From Promethearchaeota archaeon (GTDB taxonomy: Archaea; Asgardarchaeota; Lokiarchaeia; Sigyniarchaeales; SOKP01), in the NCBI GenBank assembly GCA_048938005.1, contig JBHLMQ010000008.1:17509-81508 (forward strand): 64,000 nucleotides of DNA, written 5' to 3'. The notes beneath the pieces were generated by a model that was given only the letters and a program-made list of their open reading frames with translations, was not told the DNA's origin and searched no databases. This document shows, in pieces, positions 15,057 to 63,114 of the stretch. Each line of letters starts with the position of its first letter. Position 1 is the first letter of the stretch. Both the position numbers and the translations under genes were made by a program.

Positions 15057-15065
15057 TACCTTTTT

Positions 15066-16193: not shown

Positions 16194-19100
16194 TTAATCT
16201 TCTCCCTCTTTTTTAATGAATATTTTTTCAATTTTATCTGCTTTTTCAGTTTGAATTAAATCCAAATCTAAAATTTTTACTTGATTTTGGAAATTAGTTT
16301 CAATGATATCATCTCGCTTTGGTACTAAAATAGGTTTTGTCTTTTTTGTTTTTCTAACTTTTTTCTTTAACTTTCTGATTTTTCTTACCATTGGAGGATA
16401 TTTATAATGTGTTTGATAGAGCGTGAAAACCGTAATAAGTACAATGATCCCCCCAATTAATGCATATATAAGCCAACTCAAGTCAGGTCCAGCAGTAGTA
16501 GAAGGGGTGCTTACTATCAATGTTATCTTATATTCTTTAAAATTATATTCCCCGGAAATAGCATTTATTCTTATTTCATGAACTCCTTTTCGAACATTTG
16601 GAAGGATTGCATTATATATCCCATCATTATCTAGATCTTCAAGTTCTCCCTGTCCATAGGCCCATGTAAATGTCACATTAGCATTTTTAATAGTGTTATT
16701 TAAAGGATCTTTTAAGATAATATTTAATGATACATCTTCTCCAACATAAACTTCTATTTGATCACCTCCATCTGCTCGACTAATATTTCCAACTATTCTA
16801 CTAACTTCAATCCAAAAAACTATTGATTGCGGTTGATAATTTGGGACTTCTGCAAATACTGAGAATTGAGTGGTTCCATAACCTAAATCAATAGCTTTTA
16901 TACTATAATTGTAATAGTTATTTGTTTCATTAAAATCACCTATTCCTGATAAATTGACACTTGCATTTGATAGATGTGTACCTGTTAAATTATCAGTGAA
17001 AGTTATAGTCACATTTATTATCGCATCAAGGTTAACTGATATTTTGTCATTATTTCCTTTTTCTTCTCCATTTAAAAATAAATTTAAAGAAGACGCTAAT
17101 TCAGTAATATACACCCTAATTATAACAGATTGGGCTTCATATTTATACTTATTAATAGAGATAATGAATGATGGGATAGTTTCTGATGTATAAGCAGAAG
17201 TATTACACTGCAACTCATATTGTCCTACAACAGGTTGATTCAGATAGTAATCACCTAACCAACTAATCGAAATATCACCAACAGCATCTATTCCAATTCC
17301 AGGATTGTTCTTTTCAGTAAAATTAAATTGTAAAGTAAAATTTTGCTTCCAAGGGACACTGAAAAAATTATCTTCTACCGTGAGAAGGGTTTCTTTTACT
17401 ACATCAACAGTGATATTTATTACTTTATTTAAATGATATGTAGAATTGGCATAAATTGTCAATGTATTATTTCCAGCGCTAGCTTTAGATGCATTAAATA
17501 TGAATAAATAAAACCCCGGACTTGTTTTAGTGAAATTATGATCCTCACCTGCAAAATTTGTATATACAAGACCATCATCTATTGCTGTATCATCTATTAA
17601 ATCTCTAAACGATACATAAATATTAACTTCACTGTCGTCAATCACATTTTCAATGAAATATATGCCTTGATCAGGTTCAAGTTTAGAATCATGAATTACT
17701 GCAAACTTTTGATAAATAATTCCTGTTTCATTTGATTGAAATGATGAATATGAATTATTCCAAGTGATAACCACTTCATATTCTCCAGCCTTATAATTAG
17801 GAACATTGTTAGGTATCATAAATGGGTCAAAATAAACAATCCCATTATCGTTAACTTGCTTATTTTGATATTCTCCTGTCCAAATTGTTCCATCCGGAAA
17901 TCTTAAGTACAGGGTTGCGTTAGTACTTCCGATATAACTAGATATATCAAGTTGAGGACTTACTATTTCTCCTGTTATATTAATATAATCTCCACTCATG
18001 AATGAATTATTAAGCACCCATGGTCCAGTAGCAGTAGAACCCTTATACACATCCAACTCTGAACAATAATTAGGTGATACAGCTGTTAGCTTCCAAAATC
18101 CATTTGTATTGTTTGTTATGGAACTTACTGGAATATTTACAACTTTTTTGTTTCCGTATTCTGTTATAGTAGTTTGAGAAATAGAATTAGGATTTTGAGA
18201 GAAAGATACTCCTATTAAATTGTAATCTGAAGGGTATTCAACAGTCATATTTGTTTCTTCGTATTCTGCTGGAATCTCCATATGGGCATAAGTTGTCCAA
18301 TCCACATTACTATTATTAGATACACTAAAAGCTGAGCCTTGATAATCTAGATCTGGATCAGCTGCATAATAACTTTCAGGCGTATATTTATTTGCAAACA
18401 AATTCAAATTTGCGTCAAGGTCTATTTTGTAGCTTATCCAGCTCCCGTCTTCTTCAAATGTTAAAGGCCAATTCAAATTGCTACTAAAATTAGCAATGAC
18501 AGATGATTGGATGCTTCCATTCCAATTACCCATAATTCCAACATTACCTTCACCATAATTAGCATTATCATTTACATCTTCACCATTTAATTGTAAATCA
18601 AGTTGAGATGGTTTTGTTTTAGCTTTAACTACTAAGGATACATTATCAATGAGAACAGAATATGCGGTAGAATAACCAGGATCTTCATGTCCACTAACCC
18701 TTTTAAATTCTAAAGTTATATTCATACTTTTAACTCCAACAGGAAATATTTGTTCATCATTGACATCTAAAAAAATAGGTTGCGGATTGTACCATTGCCC
18801 TGAAGGATTACCACATGCGTCTAACATTGATGCAAGGCCATTTCCCCATAAGGTTTTATCATTTATTATAGTTTGTAATACAAAATGGTTATTATATTGG
18901 TCACTGTACTTTGGAAAGGCAGCAAAACTTAACCAAGCTTCATCTACATCCCCTCTATCAAGTTCAAAAGTAGTTTCCCACCAACACTTATCACCAACGT
19001 CATATTCTCCACTCTCGTCTCCAACCCTTAATTCCAAGCAATCAGCTCCATCAGTACCATCTCCTACCCCATCATAATAATTTCCTGAAAAATCATTATC

Positions 19101-19619
19101 ATGTCCAATATCTCCTTCATCAAATGTCCAATTGGCAACGTCAAGACTATCATTATCATTTGCACCAGGGCCATTATCGGTTCCAGCATGAAAAGTCCCA
19201 TTAATCCAATTTCGTGTATCATATAAGTCCTTTACCGTAGAATTTAATTGATACCCATTCCATCCATATAATTCTACTTTAGCATTAGTATTATCATAAG
19301 AATTATTATAAAAACTTACAGCTAAATTAGTTTTTGTTCGATTGGCATAATGAGTTACGTTCCAAGGTGCTCCATTACCACTAAATATATTATCAGTCGT
19401 TAAAGCCTGTGTTTTTAAATCTTCAGAAAATAATTGTTCCTTTTCATTATAACTTTGATTAGAATTCTGATTTATGTTAAGAGTATTTAAAAATGCAATC
19501 ATCAAAAAACTCATAAATAAAACCGATAAAACTATAGTCTTTTTTTTATTAACTCTATTCAAATTTAAAAATCTAGATCTGTTTACTCTCAATTCAATAC
19601 ACCAATGAAGGTTTTTCAT
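16194..19619 (-). CDS. Large single-pass cell-surface glycoprotein with Ig-like repeats
   Basis: N-terminal hydrophobic segment, beta-rich body with many NxS/T sequons, C-terminal TM (WLIYALIGGIIVLITVFTLY) then basic KYPPMVRKIRKLKKK. Confidence 0.8.
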   Translation of the reverse strand: MKNLHWCIELRVNRSRFLNLNRVNKKKTIVLSVLFMSFLMIAFLNTLNINQNSNQSYNEKEQLFSEDLKTQALTTDNIFSGNGAPWNVTHYANRTKTNLAVSFYNNSYDNTNAKVELYGWNGYQLNSTVKDLYDTRNWINGTFHAGTDNGPGANDNDSLDVANWTFDEGDIGHDNDFSGNYYDGVGDGTDGADCLELRVGDESGEYDVGDKCWWETTFELDRGDVDEAWLSFAAFPKYSDQYNNHFVLQTIINDKTLWGNGLASMLDACGNPSGQWYNPQPIFLDVNDEQIFPVGVKSMNITLEFKRVSGHEDPGYSTAYSVLIDNVSLVVKAKTKPSQLDLQLNGEDVNDNANYGEGNVGIMGNWNGSIQSSVIANFSSNLNWPLTFEEDGSWISYKIDLDANLNLFANKYTPESYYAADPDLDYQGSAFSVSNNSNVDWTTYAHMEIPAEYEETNMTVEYPSDYNLIGVSFSQNPNSISQTTITEYGNKKVVNIPVSSITNNTNGFWKLTAVSPNYCSELDVYKGSTATGPWVLNNSFMSGDYINITGEIVSPQLDISSYIGSTNATLYLRFPDGTIWTGEYQNKQVNDNGIVYFDPFMIPNNVPNYKAGEYEVVITWNNSYSSFQSNETGIIYQKFAVIHDSKLEPDQGIYFIENVIDDSEVNIYVSFRDLIDDTAIDDGLVYTNFAGEDHNFTKTSPGFYLFIFNASKASAGNNTLTIYANSTYHLNKVINITVDVVKETLLTVEDNFFSVPWKQNFTLQFNFTEKNNPGIGIDAVGDISISWLGDYYLNQPVVGQYELQCNTSAYTSETIPSFIISINKYKYEAQSVIIRVYITELASSLNLFLNGEEKGNNDKISVNLDAIINVTITFTDNLTGTHLSNASVNLSGIGDFNETNNYYNYSIKAIDLGYGTTQFSVFAEVPNYQPQSIVFWIEVSRIVGNISRADGGDQIEVYVGEDVSLNIILKDPLNNTIKNANVTFTWAYGQGELEDLDNDGIYNAILPNVRKGVHEIRINAISGEYNFKEYKITLIVSTPSTTAGPDLSWLIYALIGGIIVLITVFTLYQTHYKYPPMVRKIRKLKKKVRKTKKTKPILVPKRDDIIETNFQNQVKILDLDLIQTEKADKIEKIFIKKEGED

Positions 19620-41449: not shown

Positions 41450-41838
41450 AGTTGGAAGGAAGAAAAATTTATAAGGGTACTGCTAAGGCGGAAGCAATCG
41501 TTACCAATGACGGTATTTCATTTTATGGTGGTGTTGATCCTGATACAGGGAAAGTAGTTGAAGTTGGACATGAACTTGAAGGTCAGTCGGTAACAGGAAA
41601 AGTTTTAGTATTTCCAACAGGCAAGGGGTCTACAGTAGGATCTTATACCATGTATAGAATGAAAAAGAATAACATGGCTCCTGCTGCAATCGTCAATAAA
41701 CAAATCGATACAATTGTTGCAGTAGGGTGTATTATCAGTGAAATTCCTTGCGTGGATAAAATTGATATTAGCTATATAAAAACTGGACAAGTTGTTATTG
41801 TTAATGGTTTAGAAGGAACTATAGAAATAATAGATTAG
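41446..41838 (+). CDS. Aconitase X small (swivel) subunit
   Basis: ISFYGGVDP, GKGSTVGS; ATGA overlap at 41446. Confidence 0.92.
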   Translation: MKLEGRKIYKGTAKAEAIVTNDGISFYGGVDPDTGKVVEVGHELEGQSVTGKVLVFPTGKGSTVGSYTMYRMKKNNMAPAAIVNKQIDTIVAVGCIISEIPCVDKIDISYIKTGQVVIVNGLEGTIEIID

Positions 41839-41854
41839 TTTCATTTTAGAATTT

Positions 41855-42865: not shown

Positions 42866-43026
42866 TACTACTTAAAATATTTATTCTAATATTTCATTCA
42901 ACTTATTTTATCCAACTTTTTAAATAAAGTCAAAAATTATTTAATTAAGTAATAGATTAAGTTATTTTTATAAATTTGAATTTTTTCAAATTCTATTATG
43001 TCATACGAGTATAATTGGTGAAGAAT

Positions 43027-45899: not shown

Positions 45900-45944
45900 G
45901 TATCAAAATTGTAACTAACTTTAAGATATCTCTTATTGAGATTC

Positions 45945-46328
45945 TTAAGTTTTTTCTTCAAGAACGTCCTTTATTTCATTTATAAAATCAGAAAAAGTAT
46001 CAATATTTCCTTTGAAATTTTTTATTTCCTCAGAATAGAGTTTCAAGAATTTTTTTGAGATTTTTTGCAATTCTTTGTTTACTTTCTTTTGATTGAATTT
46101 TTTTGAGGAATTAGCCACAAATATAAGCTCATCTCTCTTTATTATTGTGAATCTTATATCTTTTAATTCAAAATTTGATAATCCTCCTTCTGCTAATTGT
46201 TCAGCAAACATATTTAAAGCAGTCATCATTGCTCCGAAAAGCTGAGGAGAAACTGCTTTATCAAACTCTCTATGAAAAATAACTATCCCAGACTGTTCTA
46301 AAATCCAAATATCTTGGAGCATTTTCAT
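45945..46328 (-). CDS. Stand-alone longin-like domain protein
   Basis: LQDIWILEQSGIVIFHREF...LFGAMMTALNMFAEQL...LQKISKKFLKLY. Confidence 0.75.
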   Translation of the reverse strand: MKMLQDIWILEQSGIVIFHREFDKAVSPQLFGAMMTALNMFAEQLAEGGLSNFELKDIRFTIIKRDELIFVANSSKKFNQKKVNKELQKISKKFLKLYSEEIKNFKGNIDTFSDFINEIKDVLEEKT

Positions 46329-46444
46329 TTGAATTCCTCTTTAAATCTCTTTATACCAATTTCTCATAAAAAATAATCTTAAAATGAACTTCGTTTAAAA
46401 TTTATTTTTGTTGGAATAAATATTTTTTTAATTGGATTTTTTCC

Positions 46445-47512
46445 TTAGAATTTCCTTTTTATAACAAAATTTAGTAGATCTTCAAAGAATTCCATTTCTG
46501 TTTCGGTTATTTCATTTTTTAATTTATCTAGAGATAATCTCGCTTCTTTAAAATATGAATTTGCTAATTCTTTGCACGAATTAACAACATTTGATTTAAG
46601 AAACAAATCCTTAACGCTTTGAACATCTCTTTTCGTCATATCTGGCTTTTCTATTAATTCCTCGAGTCTCATCCTCTCCTTATCTTCTAATTTATTAAGG
46701 GCATCAATTAATAAACAACTCTTTTTTCCCTCTCTAATATCTCCATCTGTTGGTTTTCCAGTTATTTTTTCATCGCCAAATGTCCCTAATATATCATCAA
46801 TTATCTGAAAAATAATACCAAGATTTATTCCATAAATTGAAAGTTCCTTCAATATGTTTCCATCAACACTTGCATAATTAGCTCCAATTAGAATCGATTT
46901 CTCAAGCAAAGCTCCAGTTTTTAGTGAAACCATCTTAATATAATCCGAAATTGTAAGATTTTTTTGGTTAACCATGTCGGTTTCAATTAAAACACCATTG
47001 ACAATATCTACAAATGCTTGTTCATAATATTTTATTGCGTTTAAATTTAAATCTCTATTAAAATCGTTTGAAAAATACGCTTCTAATCCTATAATAAATG
47101 CTGAATCGCCTCCAATTATTCCTACAGAATTACCAAAATCAACATCAATCATCTTTTTCAAATTATATTGTTTATGATAATTACGGAATCTGAAATGAAA
47201 AGTAGGTTTCCCTCTTCTAAAATTATCTTTATCAATAATATCATCATGAATTAAAGAAGCATTATGAAGAAATTCTACTCCAACACTAGGTAAAACGATT
47301 CTTTTTTCTTGAGTTTCCCTAAAAGCATTAAAAGTAGCTATGCACAATAATGGTCTGATTCTCTTTCCACCTGATAGAAAATAATCCTTGAGTTCTGAAT
47401 AGTAATCTATAAGAAAAGGATTTTCTACACTATTCAGTTTCTTATCATAAATTAACTTTATTGCCTTATTAATTTCAGGAACATATTTTTTTGCATATTC
47501 AGTAAATTTCAT
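46445..47512 (-). CDS. idsA: Polyprenyl (geranylgeranyl) diphosphate synthase
   Basis: GGKRIRP, LIHDDIID...RRG, KTGAL, FQIIDDILG, DIREGK. Confidence 0.9.
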   Translation of the reverse strand: MKFTEYAKKYVPEINKAIKLIYDKKLNSVENPFLIDYYSELKDYFLSGGKRIRPLLCIATFNAFRETQEKRIVLPSVGVEFLHNASLIHDDIIDKDNFRRGKPTFHFRFRNYHKQYNLKKMIDVDFGNSVGIIGGDSAFIIGLEAYFSNDFNRDLNLNAIKYYEQAFVDIVNGVLIETDMVNQKNLTISDYIKMVSLKTGALLEKSILIGANYASVDGNILKELSIYGINLGIIFQIIDDILGTFGDEKITGKPTDGDIREGKKSCLLIDALNKLEDKERMRLEELIEKPDMTKRDVQSVKDLFLKSNVVNSCKELANSYFKEARLSLDKLKNEITETEMEFFEDLLNFVIKRKF

Positions 47513-50476: not shown

Positions 50477-50589
50477 AAATTTCTTAGTCTTTTTTCTTAC
50501 TAATTGTTAAACATTTAATTAAATATTATTTTTTTAATAATTTTGAAAATCAATTTCAAAATAGTATTTTTATATAAATATCTATTAGT

Positions 50590-52110
50590 TTAATCCAATA
50601 TAGATTTTCCAATTACACTTGAATGTGGTTTAATTCCTAATAATTCTAATAGAGTCGGAACCATATCTGTTGTTTTACAATATTCCAATTCTTTCTGTGG
50701 AAGCTCAAGTGAACCTCCAATAATAAATGGAATTATCATACACTCTCTAGTTCCAATATCATGAATATAAGGTGAAGCACTTTTAGTTACTCCATGGTCA
50801 TAATTGAAGCCATATTCCCCTAACGTTGAAATAATAATATCGCATGATCGGGGATTTTTAAAATAGCGTGGAATTTGATCAATTATTATAGGGAAATTGA
50901 TATGATTTGTAGCTTCTAACCATTCTTCGAGTGTATGAAATTTATTATCCAGAATTTTTGCTGATTTCTCATTATCGCTGTATTGATAAAAATCGTTGCC
51001 TTTAAATGTATATTTGGTTTGTTGATCTTTTCCAAAACCTCTATATTCTATCATTCCATGTCTTTTTTTCCCAGAATTTTTATCAAAATATTCAATATGA
51101 ATTATTCCTTTTTCTGGTTTATTATCATCATCTCTATAATACATATATTTTACTCCAGGAATTTCCCATAGAGTATTAAACAAATTCATTTCTTGCTTTC
51201 CCTTTCCACTAACCATAAATTTCTGCATCTTTTGAATTAAAGGATGATGTTGCCACGTATCCCCTGGAAAATTAAAAAAACCCATTGATCCAATATTACA
51301 ATCAAAATCTCCAGTTCCTTTTTCGGGATTATATGGTATTAATCCTTTTTCTTGAAAAAATGGTTCAAGGTCGACAATTTTCTTTGCTTTGAAATTACCG
51401 TGATCAGAAATTAGGCCAATCGCAGTAGAATCATAATATCCTGTTTTTTTCAAAGTATTCATTAAAGATCCTAGATATCTATCGCACTCAACTATTAAAT
51501 TAATGTAATTAGGGTGGTCAAATCCTAATTCATGCATAAGATCATCAGTTTGAAAAACATAACCTACACTTAATATTGGAACTTCCTTATTTGGAAAATA
51601 AGTTTTAGGATGTTCAAATGCTTCTATGAGATGTTTAAAGATAGCCTCTACATCGTAAACACTTTTTCCCACAACAAAATATGCTCCACGAAATAAGAAG
51701 CAACTGGAACTTAAGATATTTCCCTCTGGTATTTGTTCAAAAATCGTTTTTACATTTTTACCAATATCTTTATTTGCTTTTAATAACTGCGATCTATCTC
51801 CATAATTACGAATAAATGGTGGCTTTTTACTGGTTGATGGTGGATCTTTCCTATTTAACCAATGATAGAGAGGAAGAGCATTCCCTTCTTTAGGAAAATA
51901 TCCCGAATATGAGCCAGTAACTATATTACCATAACATGGAAATGTAATTGCGGGATATGATGTAATACAATTTGAACATTTAATTCCATTTTCCGCAATT
52001 TGTGCCATATTTGGAAGCATACCCTCATTCATCAACTTAAATAAATGTTCAGCACGAACATCGTCAAGAATAATCAATATAACTTGGTTAACTTTGGCGC
52101 TCCGACTCAT
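50590..52110 (-). CDS. Alkaline phosphatase superfamily protein (nucleotide pyrophosphatase/phosphodiesterase-like)
   Basis: ILDDVR, YPAITFP, DDLMH, SDHG, TDMVPTLLELLG. Confidence 0.85.
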   Translation of the reverse strand: MSRSAKVNQVILIILDDVRAEHLFKLMNEGMLPNMAQIAENGIKCSNCITSYPAITFPCYGNIVTGSYSGYFPKEGNALPLYHWLNRKDPPSTSKKPPFIRNYGDRSQLLKANKDIGKNVKTIFEQIPEGNILSSSCFLFRGAYFVVGKSVYDVEAIFKHLIEAFEHPKTYFPNKEVPILSVGYVFQTDDLMHELGFDHPNYINLIVECDRYLGSLMNTLKKTGYYDSTAIGLISDHGNFKAKKIVDLEPFFQEKGLIPYNPEKGTGDFDCNIGSMGFFNFPGDTWQHHPLIQKMQKFMVSGKGKQEMNLFNTLWEIPGVKYMYYRDDDNKPEKGIIHIEYFDKNSGKKRHGMIEYRGFGKDQQTKYTFKGNDFYQYSDNEKSAKILDNKFHTLEEWLEATNHINFPIIIDQIPRYFKNPRSCDIIISTLGEYGFNYDHGVTKSASPYIHDIGTRECMIIPFIIGGSLELPQKELEYCKTTDMVPTLLELLGIKPHSSVIGKSILD

Positions 52111-54426: not shown

Positions 54427-56481
54427 TTAAAAAATTGATGCTATAAATTTATAGGCGATATATAAAAAAGATTCATTTACATTCTCTCCAGTTTTGGCAG
54501 AAGTAATAATATAATTAAGCCCATATCGATTAGCAGTTATTCTTATATCTTCTTCACTAACTAATATTTTATCTACTAAGTCTGATTTATTTCCTATCAA
54601 AATAACATTAAGTTCTCCTTTAATATAAGTTTTAATTTCATTAAGCCATTCATCAATGGATTCAAGACTATCTGGGCGTGTTCTATCTATTACAATTAAA
54701 GCACAATTTGCTCCTTCATAAAATTTCTTTCTATAAGGTGCCATTTTAGTTATCTGACCACCGATATCCCATATTATGAATTTAATTTTTGTGTTTTCAC
54801 CTAATTTTATTAACCTTTGTGAAATATCTACTCCCACTGTAGAGTGATAGTCTTCTTTAAAAAGATTTTGTACAAATCTTGTTATCAGCGATGTTTTTCC
54901 TACTGCAAAATCACCGATCAAAATTAGTTTAAGTGAAAAATCACCAACAGGGATTTTACCATCTTTTGTTTTAGCAAGTATTTTTACGATGTCTGGGATC
55001 TCAAGTGATACTTTTTCATTTCCTTCTAAAAGTAACTCGACTTTTTTCGCAACATGTTCAGAATAAACACGTAGTTCAGTATCATTAGTTGTTAGATCAG
55101 CAATCGTTAATAATATTGATTTTTGTCCCATTGAACAATAGGCGAATTTTTTATCTTGAATTGTGGTAATATTGAAAAAACTACTTTCTTTACCGAATTC
55201 TTTTTTAATTCTCTCTATATAACTATCAACCATGACAGCTATTGCCCCTAAAACTGATTCATCTTCAGTATCTTTTCTACTCTCTGAAGTTATAACAAAA
55301 CCATCGCGATCACTTATTATTACCGCTAAAACGTTTTTCACATTATTCATATAATTTAATAATAGTGTTTTCAGATGACCTTCTAATGAAAAAATTGTTC
55401 TGTGTACACCTGTGATTTCAGAACTTGGGAGTTCTTTAGCGATTTCAAATTTTTTTAACCTTACTTTAACTTCTTGATATTTTTTATAGAATTCCATTTT
55501 GAGAGGATTTTCACCAAGTTTTAAACAGATATTAATAATCTTTTTATAAATGAAATCTGCTCTCTCTAAATTAACCTCTTCTAAAGCATTTTCAAATTCA
55601 TTTATCAAATTTTTCCTTTCCAATTTTAAATTTAATAGAGGAGAAATTTCCTCATGCATCTCTAAAGTATCTACAATAATTTGTATTAATTTGTCTTTAT
55701 TTTCTGTATTTTTTGCACTAATTGGAATTGTTTTTAATCCAATGATTTCTTCTATTTGGGATGGTGTCATTGCATTATTTAAATCCTGCTTATTAGCTAA
55801 AACAAAAGCATAAGCTTGAGGAACCTCTTCTTTAATTTTTTTCAAAAAAAATTTACTTTTTTCTACATTATCTAAAGTGCTATTTGTGATTATAATTAAG
55901 AGATCGCTTCCTTTAATGAAATTATTCCAAAGAAAACCAATTTCTTCTTGCCCCGTAAAATCTCGTATTAAAAAGTATAATCCTCCAATTTTAAGAGTTG
56001 ATATTTCACCACTAATTTTTGAATCTTTTAAAATAGGGAATTCTTTTGTTCTAATTAGATCAGTGATAGTTGTTTTACCAACTCCAGAGTATCCTAAAAA
56101 TGATATTACTGGTGGAAATTTATTGTATACAGAATTAAGAAATTCATCGAATTTTTTTAAAATACTAGGATCAATTTGCTCATCTAGGATTTCCATGAAT
56201 AATCTTAAAAATTCTTTCCTACATCTTTTTAATTCTTTTTTAATTAAAATAAAATCATCAGTTTTGCTATGAACAAATAAAAATAAAAGTTTGAAATCTT
56301 TCTCAGATATGAATGAAATTCTGTATTTCTTTAAATCATTATAATGAATATGTTCAATATCAACATCCTTAGAAAGAATATTTTGTATTGATGATTCAAA
56401 CACTTCTTGCGATAGAGCTTTACCGAAATTTCTTCTATATATTAGAGTGGCGTTTTTATAAATATTTACTTGTCTTAAAAT
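54427..56481 (-). CDS. Multidomain longin + Arf/Rag-like GTPase + roadblock + Rab-like GTPase
   Basis: GTPase 1: GYSGVGKT, DFTGQ, NKQD, SAK. Roadblock: VIISDRDGFVITS...LGAIA. GTPase 2: GDFAVGKTS, TVGVD, WDIGGQ, NKSD, SAKTG. Frame extends upstream of 56403 to ATT at 56481. Confidence 0.85.
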   Translation of the reverse strand: MLRQVNIYKNATLIYRRNFGKALSQEVFESSIQNILSKDVDIEHIHYNDLKKYRISFISEKDFKLLFLFVHSKTDDFILIKKELKRCRKEFLRLFMEILDEQIDPSILKKFDEFLNSVYNKFPPVISFLGYSGVGKTTITDLIRTKEFPILKDSKISGEISTLKIGGLYFLIRDFTGQEEIGFLWNNFIKGSDLLIIITNSTLDNVEKSKFFLKKIKEEVPQAYAFVLANKQDLNNAMTPSQIEEIIGLKTIPISAKNTENKDKLIQIIVDTLEMHEEISPLLNLKLERKNLINEFENALEEVNLERADFIYKKIINICLKLGENPLKMEFYKKYQEVKVRLKKFEIAKELPSSEITGVHRTIFSLEGHLKTLLLNYMNNVKNVLAVIISDRDGFVITSESRKDTEDESVLGAIAVMVDSYIERIKKEFGKESSFFNITTIQDKKFAYCSMGQKSILLTIADLTTNDTELRVYSEHVAKKVELLLEGNEKVSLEIPDIVKILAKTKDGKIPVGDFSLKLILIGDFAVGKTSLITRFVQNLFKEDYHSTVGVDISQRLIKLGENTKIKFIIWDIGGQITKMAPYRKKFYEGANCALIVIDRTRPDSLESIDEWLNEIKTYIKGELNVILIGNKSDLVDKILVSEEDIRITANRYGLNYIITSAKTGENVNESFLYIAYKFIASIF

Positions 56482-56626
56482 GATACTTCACTATATAAAA
56501 TAGATATTCTTTTATTATAATAATTTGAGTTAAAATTTATTTATTGTATAATATATGTAAAATTCAGATTATATATGTTTTAAGGCTTCAACTTCTTTTT
56601 GACTATTTCTTCATTTATTCTCTATG

Positions 56627-56862: not shown

Positions 56863-59800
56863 ATGAAAATTAATAAAAAATATGACAGAAAGTCAAAAAA
56901 TAAAATAAAATTCTTAGCAATTCTTTTATTCACATTAATTCTTACAACAACAATTAATATACAATTATTTACAATTTTTGGTAGAAATACAAGTAAAAAT
57001 ATTGTAAAAGATCCTATGGAAAAATTATCTCTTTCTACCCCTTCAAACAATCTTCCTAATGCAGATTATTTTAATTATTATAAGGTTATAACCATTGATC
57101 ACACAAAAGTTAATGGATCAGACCATCACAACTTTCCTGTTTTAATTTCTATTATTGACTCAGACTTGGATGACAAAACTCAGTTTGATGGTGATGATAT
57201 CGCCTTTGCTAATAATACTACTTGGTTGGACCATGAGATAGAACTATATAATCCTAGCTATAGTGCTACTCAAGCTCAATTGATAGCATGGGTCAGGATT
57301 CCCTTGTTATCTACTTCTAGTGATACTATAATATTCATGTTTTATGGTAACTCAACTATGGGCTCCCAAGAAAATCCAACAGGAGTTTGGAATACCAATT
57401 ATAAGGGAGTATGGCATTTAAAGGAAGATCCTGGTCCTGGAATTCCAGGAGATATTAAAGATTCAACTAGTAATAGTAATCACGGAACTGCTATTAGTAT
57501 GGGCTCCAGTGATCAGGAACCAGGACAGATTGATGGTAGCTTAAATTTTGATGGAAATGCCGATCCTGATTATGTTAATATCAATAATATTGGCCCAGGA
57601 ATAAAAACTATTGAATTTTGGATGAATCCTAATACTCTCGGTAGTTCTGATTCTTATAATACAGGTTATAGGAGTCCAAGTGCAACTGGATATGACTATG
57701 ATGAATGGACTAATCCACAAGACGCTTATAGCAGTAATAATATTAGAGCATCAGAATCGACTAATTATGACGATCAAGATTGGTACAACTTTAATTTTAA
57801 TATACCTGCTGAGGCTACCATTGATGGAATTTTGGTGTCCATTGAAGCACATACCTCACAACAATACCAATCAACTGGATGTAGAGTTAGACTCTCTGGG
57901 AATGGGGGAATACGTTATACTAGTTATAAATCTCAAAGTTGGTATAGTACAATTGATTCATATAGATCTGTTGGTGGTTCGTCAGACACATGGGGGGAGT
58001 CGTGGTCACCCTCTAATTTTTCTAATTCTAATTTTAGAGTTTGGTTAGAAAAAACAGGTTCTACTTATTACACTTTAAGTGTTGACCATATAAGGATTAT
58101 TGTTTATTATAGTATTTTATCTGATATACCCATAATTGATTTAAATGGCACTACTCAAATTTCTATTGATGCAAATAGTGGTGAAATAAAAACCCTTAGT
58201 TTCCCGGGCGCAACAAATATTTATGTTAACGGCGTAAATAGCTCGACTGTAACCGCAGGTGAATGGTATCATGTGGCAATTACAGATACAGTTGGCATTA
58301 TTAGTTCGACTTTGGATATAGCTAGGAATGCTTCAAGCTATTTTGATGGTACTATTGATGAGTTTCGTCTCTCCAACGTAGAACGTTCAGAAGATTGGAT
58401 TACTGCTGAATACAATAATCAAAAAGATCCTGGTAATTTTTTCTCAGTTGGAGGGGAAGAGACTCCACTTACCGATCTACAGGTTAATGCCACTGATTTA
58501 TATGGCAATCCAATACCAAATGTAAATATTTCTCTCTATAAAAATAATGATTTAATTAGGAGTGATATCGCAGAGGCTAATGGAAGTGTTATATTTGAAG
58601 ATTTAATTTCTATTGAAGATAAATATAACTTTACTGTCTCCATGACATCAAATATTCTTCCCTATAAAAGTATAACTATTAATAGAACAACAGAAGCTAT
58701 CCTTATAGAAGGAGCATTTCAGACTATTAATTTAATTTGCAACATAAGCAGAAATATCTTTAATGTGGTAGATAATGATGGGGTTCCCCTTGATTCGGGA
58801 TGGATAATAGTTGGTAATAGTTCAGATCCAATTCAGAATTGTACGATTGATAATTCAGGACATGCAACATTTCGATGGTTAAACACTAGTCCTTATCAAT
58901 ATAATTATACAGTATGGTATCAAGATTTTAATTACAATCCGAAAAAAATTATAATAGCATCGGGGGATATATTTACACCAAATTTCGATGTCAATGTAAC
59001 TGCGATCTTAACTACAGTTAACTTTACAGTGTTAACTTATGATTACCCTTACACCCCTGTTAATGGTGCAAAATTAATACTAGACAAGCTTAGTCCAGTT
59101 GAAAATATAGTAAATTTAACCACGAATTTAAATGGAAAAGCAACACTTAGATGGGTAAATTCTTCTGGAATAAATTCAAATTATTCCTTAAGAGTTAGTT
59201 TTTATGGACAATTCTGGGATTTTGAAATACCCGGTATGACTGGAGTAGTAGGGAAGACAAATTTTACTGTGAAAGCTGAAATTACTTATAATATAAGCAT
59301 TCATTTCGCTCCAACTGAGTTAGAAAAATTGGAAACAAAATTAGTATCTTTAAATCCAACAAATAATATTATTGTTGAATGGGGTTCGAAAATAAAATTA
59401 AGAGCTCTTTTGAATGTTACCAAAGTACCTTCTGGACCTGAATATAAAGATTTACTAGGACCAACTTATGCAGATTCAATGAAATATCAAATATTTGAAG
59501 ACACAACTCTCATTCAATCCAATATAATGTCTCCAGAAGATGATTATATTGGTAGACATCAGGTAGAAATTGAAACTGATGAGTTAGAAATTGAGACCAT
59601 ATATACACTTAAAATAAGTGCTCAAAAATCTGGTTATGTTTTACCTCCAGATGTAATAATGTTTCTATACCTTAATGAAAATGAGTTAATATTAAACCAA
59701 TCACAAAACGATGATTCATCCCAATCAGTATATTGGCAAGAGAGTGTTGAAATGTCAGTAAAACCTTATGGTATAATTTCTGAATTTTCTACTTTTGAAT

Positions 59801-62800
59801 ATAATATTTATGATATAAATTACGATACACCATTTAAGTTTTCAATTCCAGATATCTCAAACGATTGGAATTTATCACAGATTACCTTTAATATTTATGA
59901 CATTATTTGGAATGCTCCACCCGATGATATAAATATTACTATTGCGGTGAATGGTTATGGAATCCTCGAAGTTTTTAATATTAGTAATCATGATGGCCAC
60001 GATTATGCGCAAGGTATATGGACAGGAATAGAGCTTAACATAGACAAAAGTAGTCCCACTGGTGATAACAGTTTTGAGTTTTCCATTGGAGGGACATTTT
60101 CTGGTAATATAGACATTATAGCTGATGCCTTGTTTATTAGAGATAAAATTAATGTTCAATATTCAAGATTTAACATTACAGAGACTATATCTCTTTTAAC
60201 TGCAGCTGAAGGATGGGCTATAAAAAATATTACTTTTGAACTCTATAACTGCTTCAATACTTCCAATTGGACACCAATAAATCCCTTATCTGACATTAAT
60301 TTGAATATATCTACCAATGAAGGAATTAAATATGCAATGGATTCAGGAAGTTCTGGCTATGGAAAGTTAATCATAGATGATCGAATTATTTACCCTTTAG
60401 ATAACCAATTCTTATTCACCGTAGAAAGTAATCCAGATGTTATGTTTGATGTTATAATTAAAGTTGAATACATTCAAGAATTTCAGCAAAATCAATATCT
60501 AGAGACAATTTATATATCGAAGACAGAATATAACAATGGAGGAACTTTTCAAGTCAGAGTCGATGAGAAAGATTGGATTGAAGATTCTACAAAATTACTG
60601 ATTAGTGAAATCTACGACGGTGAAAATTATCTTCTTCCATCAGAAGTGGCAATGAATATTACAATTGGTGGAACCTCTTATAACGTTTCTGATGTTATTT
60701 TAGGGCAAGGAATTTTTTCATTAGAAAATTTAGATAAAGATACTATATACCAAGCTGTTATAAGCACAAACAAACCAACTATTTTCAATCTAAATTTTAC
60801 AATAGACTACTCAAGAATGGAAATTTATGAAACAAAAGGAATTGTTACTTATATAATAGAAAAATCTGCTATATTTGGAACTGTTCAGTATAATGAGGAT
60901 CTGGAATGTTATCTACAACCTATAAATACAACTATACTCGATACCATAGATTATACTATAAGATTCACTGTTATTAAACAAAATTATGCTTCAGCTATAA
61001 AAGACTTAGATTTGACTGTATTAGATCGTCTAACATTGATTAATGGATCTTCGGGATTCTTCAGAAAACCTGAAAATATTTATATTGGTGATGCTATTAA
61101 TTTTTCTTTTGTATATACTGATTTATTAAATGGAACTAAAATTACTGATTTAACAGCTCAATATTATATATGGGAGAAATATGATATTGATGGCAATGTA
61201 ATTGCTAGTGGACAAGGAACTTTAGTCACTACTACCGATCAATTACATGTATTAGATTTTGATACTGAAAATTTAACTCTTGGAGAATATTTGTTAATTG
61301 CTACAATAGGTAAAAAAAATTATGAATATAAAAATGCCATAATTTCTTTAACTGTCAATAAAAGAACAATTATTCCTCTTCTCAACGATGGAATTAACCA
61401 AATAAATGTTAAAAAAGGAGTAACTGCTACTTTAAGATTAGAATTAACAGATCCTACAAGAGGGGATATTCCATTACAAAATGCAACAGTTTTATTGACT
61501 ATAATGGGGAGGGACTATGAATTTGAAGAAAGTGAGCCTGGTATATATATTTTTAATTTTCACACAGGCAATATAGATACATTTTTTAATCCAAAAACGT
61601 TTATAGGAAAAATTAATATTTCTAAAGAAGATTATAAATCTGAAGAATTAACTATTACTATCGTTGTTGGAATGGATGAGATCTTTCCTGGTATACCTAC
61701 ATTTTATTTCTTAGTAATTGTGATTGGAATTCTTGGAATAGTGGGTAGTCTTGTAGCATATAGAGCATATAAACATGCTAAAATTCCTACATTTGTGAAA
61801 AAAGTTCGAGCGATGAAAAAAACTATTGATGGAGAAAAACCCATTTCAGAAGAGATTTTATATAGAGATAAAGAAGTATTTATTGGAGAAATTATAAAAA
61901 ATAAATGGAAAGCAATTGGATTATCCATAGAAGATATTTTTAGTATAAACCTTGAAAAAGAGAAAAAAGAACAAAAAATACAAAAGAAGATTTCTGAATC
62001 TGTTAGAGAGCATGACAAAAAACCTCTTGGACTAGTATTAATGAAATGGGACGAAAAAATTGGCACTAATATCATAGCTAAATATCCCGAAGATCTCAAA
62101 ATTACAACAAAAAGTTTAATGCAAGTATATAGCACCCATGAATATAGTGGTGAACAAGGTGTGATCACATTAATAACAGAATCATTAAATATTATCTCAT
62201 ATTACACTGGACCTGAGAGTGGTTATTATCTTCTCCTACTTTTGAATTTAGATGACGATCCTGATGTATATGAAGCGGGAATGGCAGATAATGTACGGAT
62301 TATTTTAGAAAATTTGAAAGATGAGTCTTATTTACAACTGATTCCATCACTATTTCAGCGATTATCTGTATATCCATCGCTTAGTGAGGAGGAAATCCTT
62401 ATCTCCCATTATCAAAATGGAATTAAACGAACAATTATTAATATTTTAAGAGAAGAAGGAGTAATTTCCAAATCTGAATTGGATATATGGCTCAAAGATA
62501 AATTTATTGGAGGATTTTTCGACATCGACGCTATTTTGATGGATCTTATTAAAATGGAAATAATAAAAGTCGCTTCCATCAAAGGTTTGCCCTCTGAACT
62601 CATTTTTCTAATCAAAGATCTTTATATGCTTCGAATACCCCCAATTAAATTATTAGATAATCTTGTGAACCGTGGTTTGCCTTCTCAATTTGCTAAAGAA
62701 TATTTAAATAATATAAAAGAATTTTTCCAAGATTATCATCCAACAGAAGAAGATAACCTTAAAATTATTAATGCATTAATCAATCCACAAGTTTTTGAGA

Positions 62801-63114
62801 CTTTAAGATTATTGAGGACTGCGATTGTTACAAGACAAGATCTTGAAAAACTTAGAAAGAAGGGAGTTGATGATATTTATGGTGTTTTGAAATTACTTTG
62901 GGACAATAAAATGATTAAAGTTTTCCATGATGATAAAGATAATGAATATTATGCACTTCTTTCTGATTTCTATATTGATTTTATCTTTCCAAAGTATCTT
63001 TTAAAAGCTGTTAAAACAGCATATGAGCAAAAATCAAAAGTTAATAAAGTACTTGTTGAATATCTTAAAATTCTTGAAATTACATATCTCGATTTAAAAG
63101 CATTGGAAAAATAA
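56863..63114 (+). CDS. Giant single-pass receptor-like protein: DUF2341-like + LamG/ConA + Ig-like ectodomain, TM, cytoplasmic uDENN/longin + wHTH domain
   Basis: NFPVLISI...DGDDIAF...AWVRIP...MFYGN (DUF2341-like); GVWHL...WYHVAIT...FDGTIDEFRLS (LamG); TM FYFLVIVIGILGIVGSLVAY; KIPTFVKKVR; GLVLMKWDEKIGTNIIAKYP. Confidence 0.8.
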   Translation: MKINKKYDRKSKNKIKFLAILLFTLILTTTINIQLFTIFGRNTSKNIVKDPMEKLSLSTPSNNLPNADYFNYYKVITIDHTKVNGSDHHNFPVLISIIDSDLDDKTQFDGDDIAFANNTTWLDHEIELYNPSYSATQAQLIAWVRIPLLSTSSDTIIFMFYGNSTMGSQENPTGVWNTNYKGVWHLKEDPGPGIPGDIKDSTSNSNHGTAISMGSSDQEPGQIDGSLNFDGNADPDYVNINNIGPGIKTIEFWMNPNTLGSSDSYNTGYRSPSATGYDYDEWTNPQDAYSSNNIRASESTNYDDQDWYNFNFNIPAEATIDGILVSIEAHTSQQYQSTGCRVRLSGNGGIRYTSYKSQSWYSTIDSYRSVGGSSDTWGESWSPSNFSNSNFRVWLEKTGSTYYTLSVDHIRIIVYYSILSDIPIIDLNGTTQISIDANSGEIKTLSFPGATNIYVNGVNSSTVTAGEWYHVAITDTVGIISSTLDIARNASSYFDGTIDEFRLSNVERSEDWITAEYNNQKDPGNFFSVGGEETPLTDLQVNATDLYGNPIPNVNISLYKNNDLIRSDIAEANGSVIFEDLISIEDKYNFTVSMTSNILPYKSITINRTTEAILIEGAFQTINLICNISRNIFNVVDNDGVPLDSGWIIVGNSSDPIQNCTIDNSGHATFRWLNTSPYQYNYTVWYQDFNYNPKKIIIASGDIFTPNFDVNVTAILTTVNFTVLTYDYPYTPVNGAKLILDKLSPVENIVNLTTNLNGKATLRWVNSSGINSNYSLRVSFYGQFWDFEIPGMTGVVGKTNFTVKAEITYNISIHFAPTELEKLETKLVSLNPTNNIIVEWGSKIKLRALLNVTKVPSGPEYKDLLGPTYADSMKYQIFEDTTLIQSNIMSPEDDYIGRHQVEIETDELEIETIYTLKISAQKSGYVLPPDVIMFLYLNENELILNQSQNDDSSQSVYWQESVEMSVKPYGIISEFSTFEYNIYDINYDTPFKFSIPDISNDWNLSQITFNIYDIIWNAPPDDINITIAVNGYGILEVFNISNHDGHDYAQGIWTGIELNIDKSSPTGDNSFEFSIGGTFSGNIDIIADALFIRDKINVQYSRFNITETISLLTAAEGWAIKNITFELYNCFNTSNWTPINPLSDINLNISTNEGIKYAMDSGSSGYGKLIIDDRIIYPLDNQFLFTVESNPDVMFDVIIKVEYIQEFQQNQYLETIYISKTEYNNGGTFQVRVDEKDWIEDSTKLLISEIYDGENYLLPSEVAMNITIGGTSYNVSDVILGQGIFSLENLDKDTIYQAVISTNKPTIFNLNFTIDYSRMEIYETKGIVTYIIEKSAIFGTVQYNEDLECYLQPINTTILDTIDYTIRFTVIKQNYASAIKDLDLTVLDRLTLINGSSGFFRKPENIYIGDAINFSFVYTDLLNGTKITDLTAQYYIWEKYDIDGNVIASGQGTLVTTTDQLHVLDFDTENLTLGEYLLIATIGKKNYEYKNAIISLTVNKRTIIPLLNDGINQINVKKGVTATLRLELTDPTRGDIPLQNATVLLTIMGRDYEFEESEPGIYIFNFHTGNIDTFFNPKTFIGKINISKEDYKSEELTITIVVGMDEIFPGIPTFYFLVIVIGILGIVGSLVAYRAYKHAKIPTFVKKVRAMKKTIDGEKPISEEILYRDKEVFIGEIIKNKWKAIGLSIEDIFSINLEKEKKEQKIQKKISESVREHDKKPLGLVLMKWDEKIGTNIIAKYPEDLKITTKSLMQVYSTHEYSGEQGVITLITESLNIISYYTGPESGYYLLLLLNLDDDPDVYEAGMADNVRIILENLKDESYLQLIPSLFQRLSVYPSLSEEEILISHYQNGIKRTIINILREEGVISKSELDIWLKDKFIGGFFDIDAILMDLIKMEIIKVASIKGLPSELIFLIKDLYMLRIPPIKLLDNLVNRGLPSQFAKEYLNNIKEFFQDYHPTEEDNLKIINALINPQVFETLRLLRTAIVTRQDLEKLRKKGVDDIYGVLKLLWDNKMIKVFHDDKDNEYYALLSDFYIDFIFPKYLLKAVKTAYEQKSKVNKVLVEYLKILEITYLDLKALEK

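Follow-up and report, generated by a model that had tools for sequence, protein, structure and literature searches.

A longin and winged-helix module at the cytoplasmic end of a giant Asgard archaeal surface protein, encoded beside a longin-Arf/Rag-like GTPase

Does the cytoplasmic end of a giant archaeal surface protein serve the small GTPase that is encoded, divergently, beside it? The locus that raises this question lies in a stretch of 64,000 nucleotides from a Promethearchaeota archaeon (hereafter the window), and the initial annotation, made from the letters of the window alone, read the protein as a one-component receptor whose NPRL2-like cytoplasmic domain would regulate the neighbouring GTPase. 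NPRL2 and NPRL3 (Npr2 and Npr3 in yeast) are the longin-wHTH (winged helix-turn-helix) subunits of GATOR1 (SEACIT), the GTPase-activating protein (GAP) for RagA/B.

Results

A single-pass giant surface protein

The gene forms one open frame (Table 1). Contigs from the sequencing runs of two other studies span the junction of linker and cytoplasmic module without indels, and none of the substitutions in these contigs creates a stop in the frame. Hydropathy revealed only two hydrophobic stretches in the 2083-aa protein (aa 15-40 and aa 1606-1636), and the layout is that of a single-pass receptor or adhesin, with an N-terminal signal or anchor, a large ectodomain, one transmembrane (TM) helix followed by basic residues, and a cytoplasmic tail. 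The giant single-TM protein of the initial annotation is confirmed in this respect, the helix falling at nt 61696-61764 as against the ~61700-61760 first proposed, and the basic juxtamembrane helix described there is borne out as to its charge, which is +7 over the 86 residues after the TM. This linker is homologous to the C-terminal tails of unfused giant proteins, and the membrane-proximal ~300 aa of the ectodomain are likewise found in partner giants elsewhere.

The ectodomain had been labelled DUF2341/LamG/Ig-like. In this product all such matches fall below the Pfam cut-offs (DUF2341, 19.7 bits against 23.4; Laminin_G_3, 19.4 against 27.6; CarboxypepD_reg, 27.1 against 32.3; Big_1, 16.0 against 34.9), but of the seven fused relatives that were scanned, three (P0004, P0010 and P0011) match Laminin_G_3 significantly (37 to 144 bits), and the last of these additionally matches DUF2341 with 58 bits; the labels are thus confirmed only in part. 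NxS/T sequons number 46 in the ectodomain, where 24.4 +/- 4.3 are expected and none of 2000 shuffles reached 46, and are absent from the cytoplasmic part. The protein is probably N-glycosylated, and its ectodomain may sense glycans or contact.

Table 1. Positions of the features in the window
Feature	Position	Strand	Evidence
Whole ORF, fused giant surface protein and LWH module	56863..63114	+	One open frame, 2083 aa, ATG start
Hydrophobic N-terminal segment, aa 15-40, preceded by basic residues; signal peptide or anchor	56905..56982	+	Hydropathy
Ectodomain, about 1570 aa, rich in sequons	56983..61695	+	Weak Pfam matches, sequon count
Weak DUF2341 match, aa 109-175	within 56983..61695	+	Pfam
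Weak Laminin_G_3 match, aa 448-513	within 56983..61695	+	Pfam
Weak CarboxypepD_reg/Ig-like match, aa 544-595	within 56983..61695	+	Pfam
Single TM helix, aa 1612-1634	61696..61764	+	Hydropathy
Basic juxtamembrane linker, aa 1635-1720	61765..62022	+	Charge count
Longin domain, model residues 1-120	62023..62382	+	AlphaFold2 strand/helix order, structure matches
Family motif W-D-x-[RK]-x-G ... Y-P, longin strand 1/strand 2 hairpin	within 62023..62382	+	Family alignment
Winged-helix domain 1, model residues 122-206	62386..62640	+	AlphaFold2 model; cullin WHB and MarR-type matches
Winged-helix domain 2, model residues 221-322	62683..62988	+	AlphaFold2 model; ArsR/PH1932-type wHTH profile matches
C-terminal helical hairpin, model residues 323-363	62989..63111	+	AlphaFold2 model
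Divergent neighbour: longin (aa 1-120), Arf/Rag-like GTPase (about 121-280), helical linker, roadblock-like (about 370-458), Rab-like GTPase (about 510-680)	54427..56481	-	Pfam, AlphaFold2
Split second cassette, 1141-aa single-pass giant protein, TM near aa 1044	16194..19619	-	
Free-standing LWH paralogue, 375 aa	15066..16193	-	ATG directly after the giant gene's TAA, same frame

A longin followed by two winged helices

The cytoplasmic module comprises 363 aa (aa 1721-2083, from nt 62023, opening GLVLMKWDEK). AlphaFold2, given a 60-sequence family alignment, modelled it with a pLDDT of 95.7 and a pTM of 0.89 as a longin, two helix-rich winged-helix units and two C-terminal helices, an arrangement that we refer to as LWH. 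The model and its structure matches agree with the earlier assignment of a longin fold followed by two wHTH segments. Winged-helix domain 1 matches cullin WHB and MarR-type folds (Z 9.0-9.4, 63-71 residues aligned), and domain 2 gives weak profile matches (E 2e-4 to 6e-3) to wHTH regulators of the ArsR, HlyU and PH1932 types; HTH_20, HTH_5, TrmB and TFIIE_alpha are each matched by 3-6 of the 60 family members.

Regulator-type matches of this kind would suit a membrane-tethered transcription factor, in which the winged helices bind DNA and the longin senses, after the fashion of ToxR-like one-component regulators, and a TrmB-domain protein is in fact encoded (13104-15056) after the split second cassette of the window. 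We nevertheless regard this reading as highly improbable. By composition, the recognition helices of the family are acidic or hydrophobic (median net charge -1 for each across the family, and -3 and -1 in the protein studied here), the module as a whole carries a net charge of -11, and what is conserved around LWH is a GTPase and a membrane protein rather than a regulon. Moreover, the same winged-helix fold mediates protein contacts in NPRL2/3, cullins and ESCRT-II.

How far the likeness to NPRL2 extends

In structural comparisons (VIA-align) the LWH longin matched GATOR1/SEAC chains about 365 residues long with Z 12.2-11.1 over 118-119 residues and an rmsd of 2.9. (Note that the GATOR1 chains in the matched PDB entries are presumed to be such from their lengths.) The NPRL2 longin is nominally the best match at Z 12.2; Lst4, VAMP7 and an archaeal longin follow within about 1 Z, so that in these model-based comparisons the preference for NPRL2 over other longins is within noise. 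One further VIA-align alignment, to 9v0j_A, extends over 158 residues at an rmsd of 6.4. With Foldseek, GATOR1 chains align with the module over 310-330 columns (probability 0.96-0.97).

At the sequence level, neither Pfam NPR2 (PF06218) nor NPR3 (PF03666) matched the protein or anything else in the genome at E<=1, and a profile search of the PDB with the module (E<=10) returned no NPRL2 or NPRL3 and no solved longin. The catalytic arginine finger of NPRL2, Arg78, lies beside a GP motif in the hairpin. In the family alignment no arginine is near-invariant among longin residues 1-120; position 12, the only semi-conserved basic position of the hairpin, is R in 28/60 and K in 10/60 members, and K in the protein studied here. 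The first hairpin conserves W-D-x-x-x-G (W in 54/60, D in 46/60, G in 56/60), and where GAP longins have GP most members have G-x: G14 is kept in 56 of them and followed by P in only seven. The earlier label "NPRL2-like" is supported by domain order, N-terminal longin then tandem winged helices, and not by profile similarity, a near-invariant arginine, a conserved GP motif or a structural lead. LWH further differs from NPRL2/3 in having two winged helices where they have three, and in being membrane-anchored through a giant ectodomain protein where they belong to a soluble DEPDC5 complex; both are tied to an Arf/Rag-like GTPase, a link that for LWH is genomic.

Other longin systems share parts of this design. 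The W-D-x-x-x-G hairpin is spaced as in C9orf72 (W33-D34...G38-P39), where W33, D34 and G38 are reported to be essential for the C9orf72 GAP complex, and FLCN, FNIP and C9orf72 chains are among the matches of the LWH longin (Z 9.2-10.9); compared with C9orf72-SMCR8 and FLCN-FNIP, however, LWH is without DENN or d-DENN domains, seldom has the P after the G, and has no arginine finger that we could identify. As in MglB-MglA, SRX-SRbeta, Mon1-Ccz1, TRAPP and Ragulator, a longin or roadblock protein is encoded with, or fused to, a GTPase. In SRX-SRbeta a longin pairs with a membrane-bound Arf-like GTPase, and SR chains match the LWH longin at Z 8.8-9.8. What sets LWH apart from these platforms is that the regulator-like protein is the membrane-anchored one and that the GTPase has a longin of its own.

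A fused form of a widespread two-gene cassette

The LWH family comprises 380 clusters (E<=1e-3), annotated only as hypothetical, and occurs in 315 of 400 genomes across the phylum. The majority of its members stand alone, as proteins of about 365 aa that start exactly at the position corresponding to aa 1721 of the 2083-aa protein. A giant single-pass gene lies directly next to the LWH gene, in either order, in 15 of 20 fetched regions, and the two adjoin at three loci of the genome studied here, among them the split second cassette of the window (Table 1). LWH and giant genes are often translationally coupled or fused, and the giants have their membrane-proximal part, TM and tail in common. 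Fused rows make up 9 of 85 full-length rows and all fall in one clade of 11 rows, for which the tree needs two changes; genome G189 has a fused copy of 2095 aa, and G170 has a tandem array of five. The gene at 56863..63114 is thus the fused form of a conserved Asgard archaeal two-gene cassette, the fusion being restricted to one lineage and the cassette widespread, and the description "one-component receptor" must be qualified accordingly.

The giant gene is the most constant partner of LWH, and this pairing would be expected if LWH were an inner-face adaptor or assembly factor for the giants (in sorting, anchoring or clustering, or as a link to the cytoskeleton or ESCRT), with no role in GTPase regulation and with the nearby GTPase genes parallel or loosely linked. 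The parts common to the giants resemble a docking site, many cassettes are without a GTPase, and the tandem winged helices resemble those of ESCRT-II subunits (2zme_A, 250 columns, Foldseek probability 0.89). The latter (Vps22, Vps25 and Vps36) also have two consecutive winged helices, which they use for protein contacts, but they are without a longin, and their matches (2zme_A, 3cuq_A and 1u5t_A, probabilities 0.57-0.89) rank lower than those of GATOR1. We consider the adaptor reading unlikely, given that longins with a WD...G hairpin face the GTPase in known complexes and given the gene linkage described below.

Linkage of LWH genes to longin-Arf-like GTPase genes

The divergent neighbour probably starts at ATT 56481, since no in-frame ATG, GTG or TTG occurs after the TGA at 56490-56488. 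Its longin-GTPase-roadblock-Rab order, as initially annotated, was recovered: Pfam scores are 94.5 bits for Arf and 158 bits for Ras/Rab, the N-terminal 120 aa show the longin strand/helix order (AlphaFold2, pLDDT 78.9), and the roadblock-like stretch lies just below threshold (Robl_LC7, 19.9 against 23). The best fold matches of the Arf/Rag-like domain are Arl1 and Arf. All nine adjacent GTPases scanned have in common an N-terminal domain of about 125 aa, a domain with longin strand/helix order in the AlphaFold2 model, followed by an Arf-like G domain.

Such GTPase genes adjoin LWH genes in no fewer than seven of the phylum's families (f1, f6, f7, f9, f20, f21 and f31), and the neighbourhood conservation that the initial annotation called for is therefore present. 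Two of the three cassette loci of the genome studied here have such a GTPase, of which there are seven in 3.72 Mb; the split second cassette has none beside it. In five closed or near-closed genomes of other families, a GTPase lies <=10 kb from 9 of 18 full-length LWH genes, where we estimate about 0.4 by chance. (Note that counts based on our GTPase alignment, A3, are partly circular for these first five genomes because the A3 sequences were found by adjacency.) In five further genomes, picked by best GTPase-longin match, an LWH gene lies within about 300 nt of the GTPase in all five and at 9-27 nt in four. Adjacency is far more frequent than chance.

The linkage is not universal. It holds for 4 of 25 LWH genes in G189, G170, G135, G143 and G279 (none of 12 in those of the five that belong to f3 and f4) and for neither of two in G303. 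Of 400 genomes, 372 have the longin domain of the GTPase, some of them in families nearly without LWH (in f13, 31/31 genomes as against 4/31 for LWH), and the two are therefore not strictly co-inherited. In f20, f21 and f31, by contrast with what the adaptor reading would lead one to expect, an LWH gene abuts the GTPase gene (gaps of 0-27 nt) with no giant gene beside it (loci read: L040 and L054). Thus, LWH probably has a GTPase-linked role of its own.

This linkage also bears on whether LWH is a catalytic equivalent of NPRL2 that would act on a Rag-like GTPase as a GAP with an arginine finger, and so a direct archaeal precursor of GATOR1. According to the part of Tran et al. that treats it, the class of G domain flanked by longin and roadblock, to which the neighbour's first G domain belongs, is Rag-like yet close to Arf (PMC10933270). 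Against the Pfam profile Gtr1_RagA (cut-off 22 bits), five of the nine adjacent GTPases score 22.2-25.6 bits, two stay below the cut-off and two give no match. A short longin-only paralogue, which could form the second half of a heterodimer, lies beside the GTPase at three loci of G128; in G135 the two are at most about 2.3 kb apart, and in G002 the paralogue adjoins an LWH gene with no such GTPase nearby. These observations, together with the domain order and with GATOR1 chains as top structural matches, speak for such a precursor. Nonetheless, the Arf scores of these GTPases are far higher (47-83 bits), the best fold matches of the neighbour are Arl1 and Arf, and LWH itself is without the NPR2/NPR3 profiles, a conserved arginine or, mostly, the GP motif; we find this reading distinctly doubtful, more so than that of an adaptor.

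Discussion

On balance, and with considerable reservation, we think it probable that the fused protein is a membrane-anchored longin platform that recruits or regulates the neighbouring GTPase. The fusion tethers LWH covalently to the inner face of the membrane, where its longin, like longins elsewhere, would contribute one half of a dimeric platform that serves a small GTPase, the likely client being the longin-Arf/Rag-like GTPase encoded alongside. Arf proteins carry a membrane-binding helix at the site where this GTPase has its longin, and we propose that it therefore needs a membrane-bound partner. Both winged helices, which are acidic, would act as protein-binding modules, and the state of the surface protein would be coupled to where the GTPase is located or which nucleotide it carries. 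The gene, its topology and fold, the family, the cassette, the fusion and the synteny with the GTPase are observed, whereas the binding of LWH to the GTPase, the direction of signalling and GAP or GEF activity are the steps that we infer.

A more far-reaching idea, which we hold to be improbable, is that the architecture seen in NPRL2/3, longin plus wHTH, originated in Asgard archaea, where it served giant transmembrane surface proteins as their cytoplasmic output and was a longin platform (GAP or GEF) for a longin-Arf/Rag-like GTPase, in a pre-eukaryotic plasma-membrane receptor-to-small-GTPase pathway ancestral in kind to GATOR1-Rag signalling. NPR2 and NPR3 are described in the literature as longin plus tandem wHTH (PMC3521125, PMC3747258), and in the relevant passage Zhang et al. 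put the origin of this fusion in the eukaryotic stem. "NPRL2-like longin" proteins have been reported in Asgard archaea as asCOGs (Liu et al., bioRxiv 10.1101/2020.10.19.343400) and are also listed for Ca. Lokiarchaeum ossiferum (PMC9834061); passages of these two papers give one such family a longin plus C-terminal-domain organisation and report fusions to signalling domains. LWH resembles these proteins in being an NPRL2-like longin in an Asgard protein, whereas the giant transmembrane fusion and the operon with a longin-Arf GTPase go unmentioned in those passages, and the words "transmembrane", "winged" and "wHTH" each occur 0 times in the main text of Liu et al. The LWH family may already be listed in Figure 5c or the supplementary asCOG tables of that work.

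Small GTPases number in the dozens in Asgard genomes, as do longin and roadblock proteins. In cultured MK-D1, according to the passages of Tran et al. on gene order, GTPase genes are generally not in operons with longin or roadblock genes, and regulators therefore cannot be matched to GTPases from genome layout (PMC10933270). The pairing of LWH with a longin-Arf GTPase is an exception that recurs across the phylum and provides one concrete candidate pair of regulator and client. If the coupling is real, it would connect the surface of a prokaryotic cell with a GTPase switch of eukaryotic type and would bear on the beginnings of membrane signalling and trafficking.

A putative surface protein with a cytoplasmic module

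The fused frame opens with ATG, stays open for 2083 codons and lies in an AT-rich window (G+C 25-36% per 2-kb bin). Hydropathy analysis of its product identified only two hydrophobic stretches: aa 15-40, which is preceded by a lysine-rich N-terminus, and aa 1606-1636, the core of which coincides with the single transmembrane segment that the initial annotation had placed near 61700-61760. The 86 residues past the second stretch are basic (net +7) and the C-terminus should therefore be cytoplasmic. NxS/T sequons number 46 in the 1567-aa stretch between the hydrophobic segments, compared with 24.4 ± 4.3 in shuffles of the same residues (0 of 2000 shuffles reached 46), and there are none in the 449-aa cytoplasmic part; this distribution fits an N-glycosylated ectodomain. 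The DUF2341/LamG/Ig-like labels originally given to the ectodomain are plausible, in that Laminin_G_3 is significant in three of the seven fused relatives scanned (and DUF2341 as well in one of those three), but they are weak for the 2083-aa protein itself, where Pfam matches to DUF2341, Laminin_G_3, CarboxypepD_reg and Big_1 were all sub-threshold. (Note that genes for a 936-aa GH38 alpha-mannosidase and a 506-aa type-I phosphodiesterase/sulfatase-like protein lie at 47666-52110 (-), a few kb away from the gene for the giant, which is putatively glycosylated. Also in the window is an isoprenoid cluster, at 35165-47512, with HMG-CoA synthase and reductase, a UbiX-like flavoprotein, a UbiD-like decarboxylase, aconitase-X large and small subunits, MVD-like and GHMP kinases, an amino-acid-kinase/FMN-dehydrogenase fusion and a polyprenyl synthetase; inside it is a small Fuz/MON1-type longin gene at 45945-46328 (-).)

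Coordinates of the genes, domains and paralogues discussed in the text
Feature	Position	Strand	Details
Fused cassette	ORF 56863..63114	+	2083 aa
Transmembrane core	aa 1612-1634, nt 61696-61764	+	Hydropathy
Longin (model residues)	Strands 3-10, 14-21; helix 29-42; strands 46-51, 56-61, 68-74; helices 80-96, 103-119		AlphaFold2
Winged helix 1 (model residues)	~122-206		Four helices, three strands; AlphaFold2
Winged helix 2 (model residues)	~221-322		AlphaFold2
Closing helices	After winged helix 2		Two; AlphaFold2
Split cassette in the window	Giant 16194-19619, LWH 15066-16193	-	TAA then ATG directly, in frame
Two split cassettes	Contig C49 of the same genome		Giants 1460 and 1221 aa, then LWH 370 and 371 aa
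Short longin paralogues	L039 6445-6825; L041 7230-7619; L043 5799-6188; L044 (G002) 10970-11416; G135:C1:2146494-2146868		126-148 aa (L, fetched 20-kb regions; G, genomes)

The module is built like NPRL2/3

The C-terminal module (aa 1721-2083; a longin, two winged helices and a helical hairpin, here called LWH) was used together with the linker (aa 1635-2083) as the query of an exhaustive HMMER search, which recovered 380 clusters at E<=1e-3, 102 of these at E<=1e-30. Most members are 355-410 aa long and have residue 2 aligned to aa 1721 of the fused protein; in a handful (P0003-P0011) the module forms the C-terminal end of a protein of up to 2548 aa. Every database name in the family is 'hypothetical protein' (from Promethearchaeota and Loki-, Thor- and Hodarchaeota MAGs), none of the entries has a precomputed Pfam domain, and the protein atlas rows are unnamed archaeal clusters only. 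Eleven of the 85 full-length members have C-terminal extensions, and the module is therefore used again in other contexts. (It is N-terminal in P0044, of 1020 aa, and P0058, of 1046 aa, both with TPR repeats and the former also with SIR2_2.)

AlphaFold2, supplied with an alignment of 60 family members, folded the module with pLDDT 95.7 and pTM 0.89. In the model the N-terminal strands and helices run in longin order, and two winged helices follow, bearing out the cytoplasmic longin and two wHTH-like units of the initial annotation. A structural search against representatives placed first a chain that we take, from its length, to belong to GATOR1 (8fw5_B; Z 11.5, 119 residues, rmsd 2.9), with a SEA-complex chain and the longins of Lst4, VAMP7 and a Lokiarchaeota protein within 1 Z of it. 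Similarly, GATOR1 chains of ~365 residues lead a re-scored Foldseek list (Z 12.2, 12.0 and 11.7), tied with Lst4 (11.5), VAMP7 (11.3) and an archaeal longin (11.0). The top Foldseek rows themselves are MON1A and GATOR1 chains (E 8.6e-4), the latter aligned over 310-330 columns at probability 0.96-0.97 with TM-scores of only about 0.2. Judged from the model, LWH and the GATOR1 chains have their domain order in common and differ in domain packing. Structural matches of the winged helices are to cullin WHB and MarR-type domains (Z 9.0-9.4), and their sequence-profile matches are to ArsR/PH1932-type regulators (E 2e-4 to 6e-3); the idea that LWH is a DNA-binding module, that is, a transcription factor, is nonetheless weakened by the acidic character of the recognition helices.

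The likening of this architecture to that of NPRL2/3 was right, because Npr2/Npr3 are described as carrying a triad of tandem wHTH domains after a longin in the text of Zhang et al. (PMC3521125), and as having 'two or more' wHTH repeats, winged and of four helices and two strands, in that of Levine et al. (PMC3747258). LWH shares this domain build but lacks a match to the NPR2/NPR3 profiles, which found nothing at E<=1 across the whole 3.72-Mb genome. Moreover, Pfam and NCBIfam returned no match to the module (in Pfam, no family at E<=1), a PDB profile search with the module returned no GATOR1 chain at E<=10, and phmmer with the longin alone against PDB sequences gave two matches only, both at chance level (E 0.5). 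At the level of sequence profiles, membership of LWH in the NPRL2/3 families fails.

GAP longins are characterized, in the text of a 2025 article in Traffic (PMC12290439), by a GP motif before strand 2, adjoining an arginine finger, and W33-D34 and G38-P39 are the residues named there for C9orf72. At the C9orf72 spacing the LWH hairpin has W in 54 of 60 members, D in 46 (W1729 and D1730 in the fused protein) and G in 56, whereas the counterpart of P39 after the hairpin G is present in only 7 of 60. The sole semi-conserved basic residue of the hairpin is position 12 (R in 28/60, K in 10/60; K1732 in the fused protein), and none of the positions in residues 1-120 has a near-invariant Arg among the 60 members. 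LWH is thus built like NPRL2/3 and has a GTPase-type hairpin, with no evident catalytic arginine.

A two-gene cassette in fused form

A search of the genome with the LWH profile gave nine ORFs at E<=1e-20, in six of which the match spans most of the profile; four of these nine ORFs are part of cassettes that include giant single-pass proteins, either fused or split (see table). (Note that the split cassette region of the window, 13104-19619 (-), encodes a 1141-aa giant, a 375-aa LWH protein and, after these, a protein of 650 aa whose N-terminus is a TrmB-type winged helix; there is no adjoining longin-Arf GTPase, and a roadblock protein is encoded at 21049-21510 (+), 1.4 kb upstream.) In 15 of 20 regions (20 kb each) from eight other genomes, an LWH gene abuts the gene of a single-pass protein about 860-2600 aa long, with the giant either first or second and gaps of a few bases. 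The partner giants resemble the fused protein mainly over aa 1300-1715, that is, the end of the ectodomain, the transmembrane segment and the tail; the distal ectodomains vary, a pattern expected if the surface proteins diversify while their docking tail stays constant.

Fused genes were also found in a genome of the same genus (2095 aa) and in G170, a genome of the phylum, where five copies of 2655-2678 aa stand in tandem. (The G170 array lies at C9:430352-472525, with a GTPase gene of 580-aa frame divergent at its head.) A tree built from 85 full-length modules groups all nine fused rows with the two C49 copies in a single 11-member clade; the fused label needs two changes on this tree, with which a single origin of the fused form would still be compatible.

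An assembly error does not account for the fused frame. A contig from one independent metagenome run (X5) spans 60900-62235 and contigs from a second (X4) span 60900-62021 and 61992-62127, all with no indels; the 14 distinct substitutions comprise nine synonymous and five conservative changes and create no stops, with parts of 62240-63114 lying outside the contig cover. An origin of the fused form by stop-codon read-through was rejected: the frame is open in the window gene and its relatives, and the split copies have ordinary coupling (TAA-ATG in frame at 16194; overlapping or offset frames on C49). At the loose end of an X4 contig, at ~62038, a stop codon and an ATG overlap (TAATG) immediately ahead of an LWH start, and that sample therefore contains a split relative as well as the fused form.

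LWH genes recurrently adjoin longin-Arf GTPases

The divergent neighbour of the fused gene (54427-56481, -) had been described as longin-GTPase-roadblock-Rab. Pfam assigns Arf to aa 126-253 and Ras to aa 518-677, and an AlphaFold2 model of aa 1-294 has an N-terminal domain of longin order followed by a G domain, the best structural matches of which are Arl1 (E 1.8e-10), Arf proteins and an Asgard ArfR; only the roadblock-like stretch fell just below threshold. The N-terminus reads I-L-R-Q. Since there is no ATG, GTG or TTG between an in-frame TGA (56490-56488) and the conserved N-terminus (window 56479-56490, -), and homologues begin M-L/I-R-E there, the start codon is likely the ATT at 56481. 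(The window is C60:17509-81508 of its genome, G000. Just past its end, at G000:C60:81781-84007, the fused gene is followed by a tandem pair of genes for roadblock-Rab-like GTPases of 327 aa each, and a similar gene is divergent beside a giant-LWH cassette in G128, at L049 16330-17277.)

The genome encodes seven longin-Arf GTPases, with two at two of the three cassette loci. In five closed or near-closed genomes of five other families, picked before any GTPase was examined, 9 of 18 full-length LWH genes have a longin-Arf GTPase within 10 kb, seven of these within 1 kb, compared with an estimated chance expectation of ~0.4 (19 such GTPases in 16.7 Mb). All nine adjacent GTPases follow the same plan when scanned, an N-terminal domain of ~125 aa and then an Arf-like G domain. 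Moreover, in five further genomes selected only by a strong GTPase-longin match (families f6 and f20 and three genera of f31), the GTPase adjoins an LWH gene in 5/5, with gaps of 9, 9, 14, 27 and ~270 nt. Adjacent LWH-GTPase pairs number in the dozens in f6, f7, f9, f20, f21 and f31, and in f31 and f20 the two genes abut. Five more closed genomes (families f1, f3 and f4) gave 4 linkages for 25 LWH genes, all four in f1 (three of them in the same-genus genome and orthologous to the loci described here), and 0 for the 12 LWH genes of f3 and f4. The layout of C49, with the GTPase between two cassettes, recurs in about 25 genomes of the genus, which amount to one conserved locus and not 25 events. 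The linkage is not obligatory. Note that phyletic co-occurrence is uninformative here because the GTPase's longin domain is much more widespread than LWH (372 versus 315 of 400 genomes) and is present in families nearly without LWH.

An alternative is that LWH is purely an adaptor for giant surface proteins, as the cassettes might suggest; this is weakened by LWH-GTPase operons that have no giant gene (regions L040 and L054). A complex prediction for LWH, GTP and the longin-GTPase half, with the alignment for the latter built from sequences found by adjacency, scored 0.00 and gave no answer, which is neutral either way. Finally, LWH has short paralogues that consist of a longin only (about 126 aa): three G128 loci have one next to the GTPase, G135 has one within ~2.3 kb of it, and that of G002 is beside an LWH gene with no such GTPase nearby. 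These paralogues are candidate second partners in a longin heterodimer.

Discussion

These analyses show a membrane-anchored longin-wHTH module, encoded in a conserved cassette together with giant surface proteins and, recurrently, in an operon with the gene for a longin-Arf/Rag-like GTPase. NPRL2-like longin proteins have already been reported in Asgard archaea, according to the text of Liu et al. (10.1101/2020.10.19.343400), and a figure legend of Rodrigues-Oliveira et al. (PMC9834061) has 'NPRL2-like longin domain' among enriched families; in the text of the papers examined we found nothing on giant transmembrane LWH fusions or the LWH-GTPase operon.

Longin and roadblock domains are presented as dimeric platforms for small GTPases in the text of Levine et al. 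(PMC3747258) and Tran et al. (PMC10933270). Arf proteins have a membrane-binding helix N-terminal to the G domain (10.1101/2024.02.28.582541), and GTPases of the neighbour's type have a longin domain at that position. Because longins are such platforms and the GTPase longin occupies the place of the Arf helix, we propose that the longin of LWH would pair with that of the GTPase, or with a short longin paralogue. Such pairing could hold the G domain at the receptor tail and set, or read, its nucleotide state, and the acidic winged helices might bind further proteins. Signals may pass from outside to inside, or the GTPase may control the surface protein. The findings provide a concrete, conserved candidate trio of regulator, GTPase and receptor in a group where such pairs are hard to assign.
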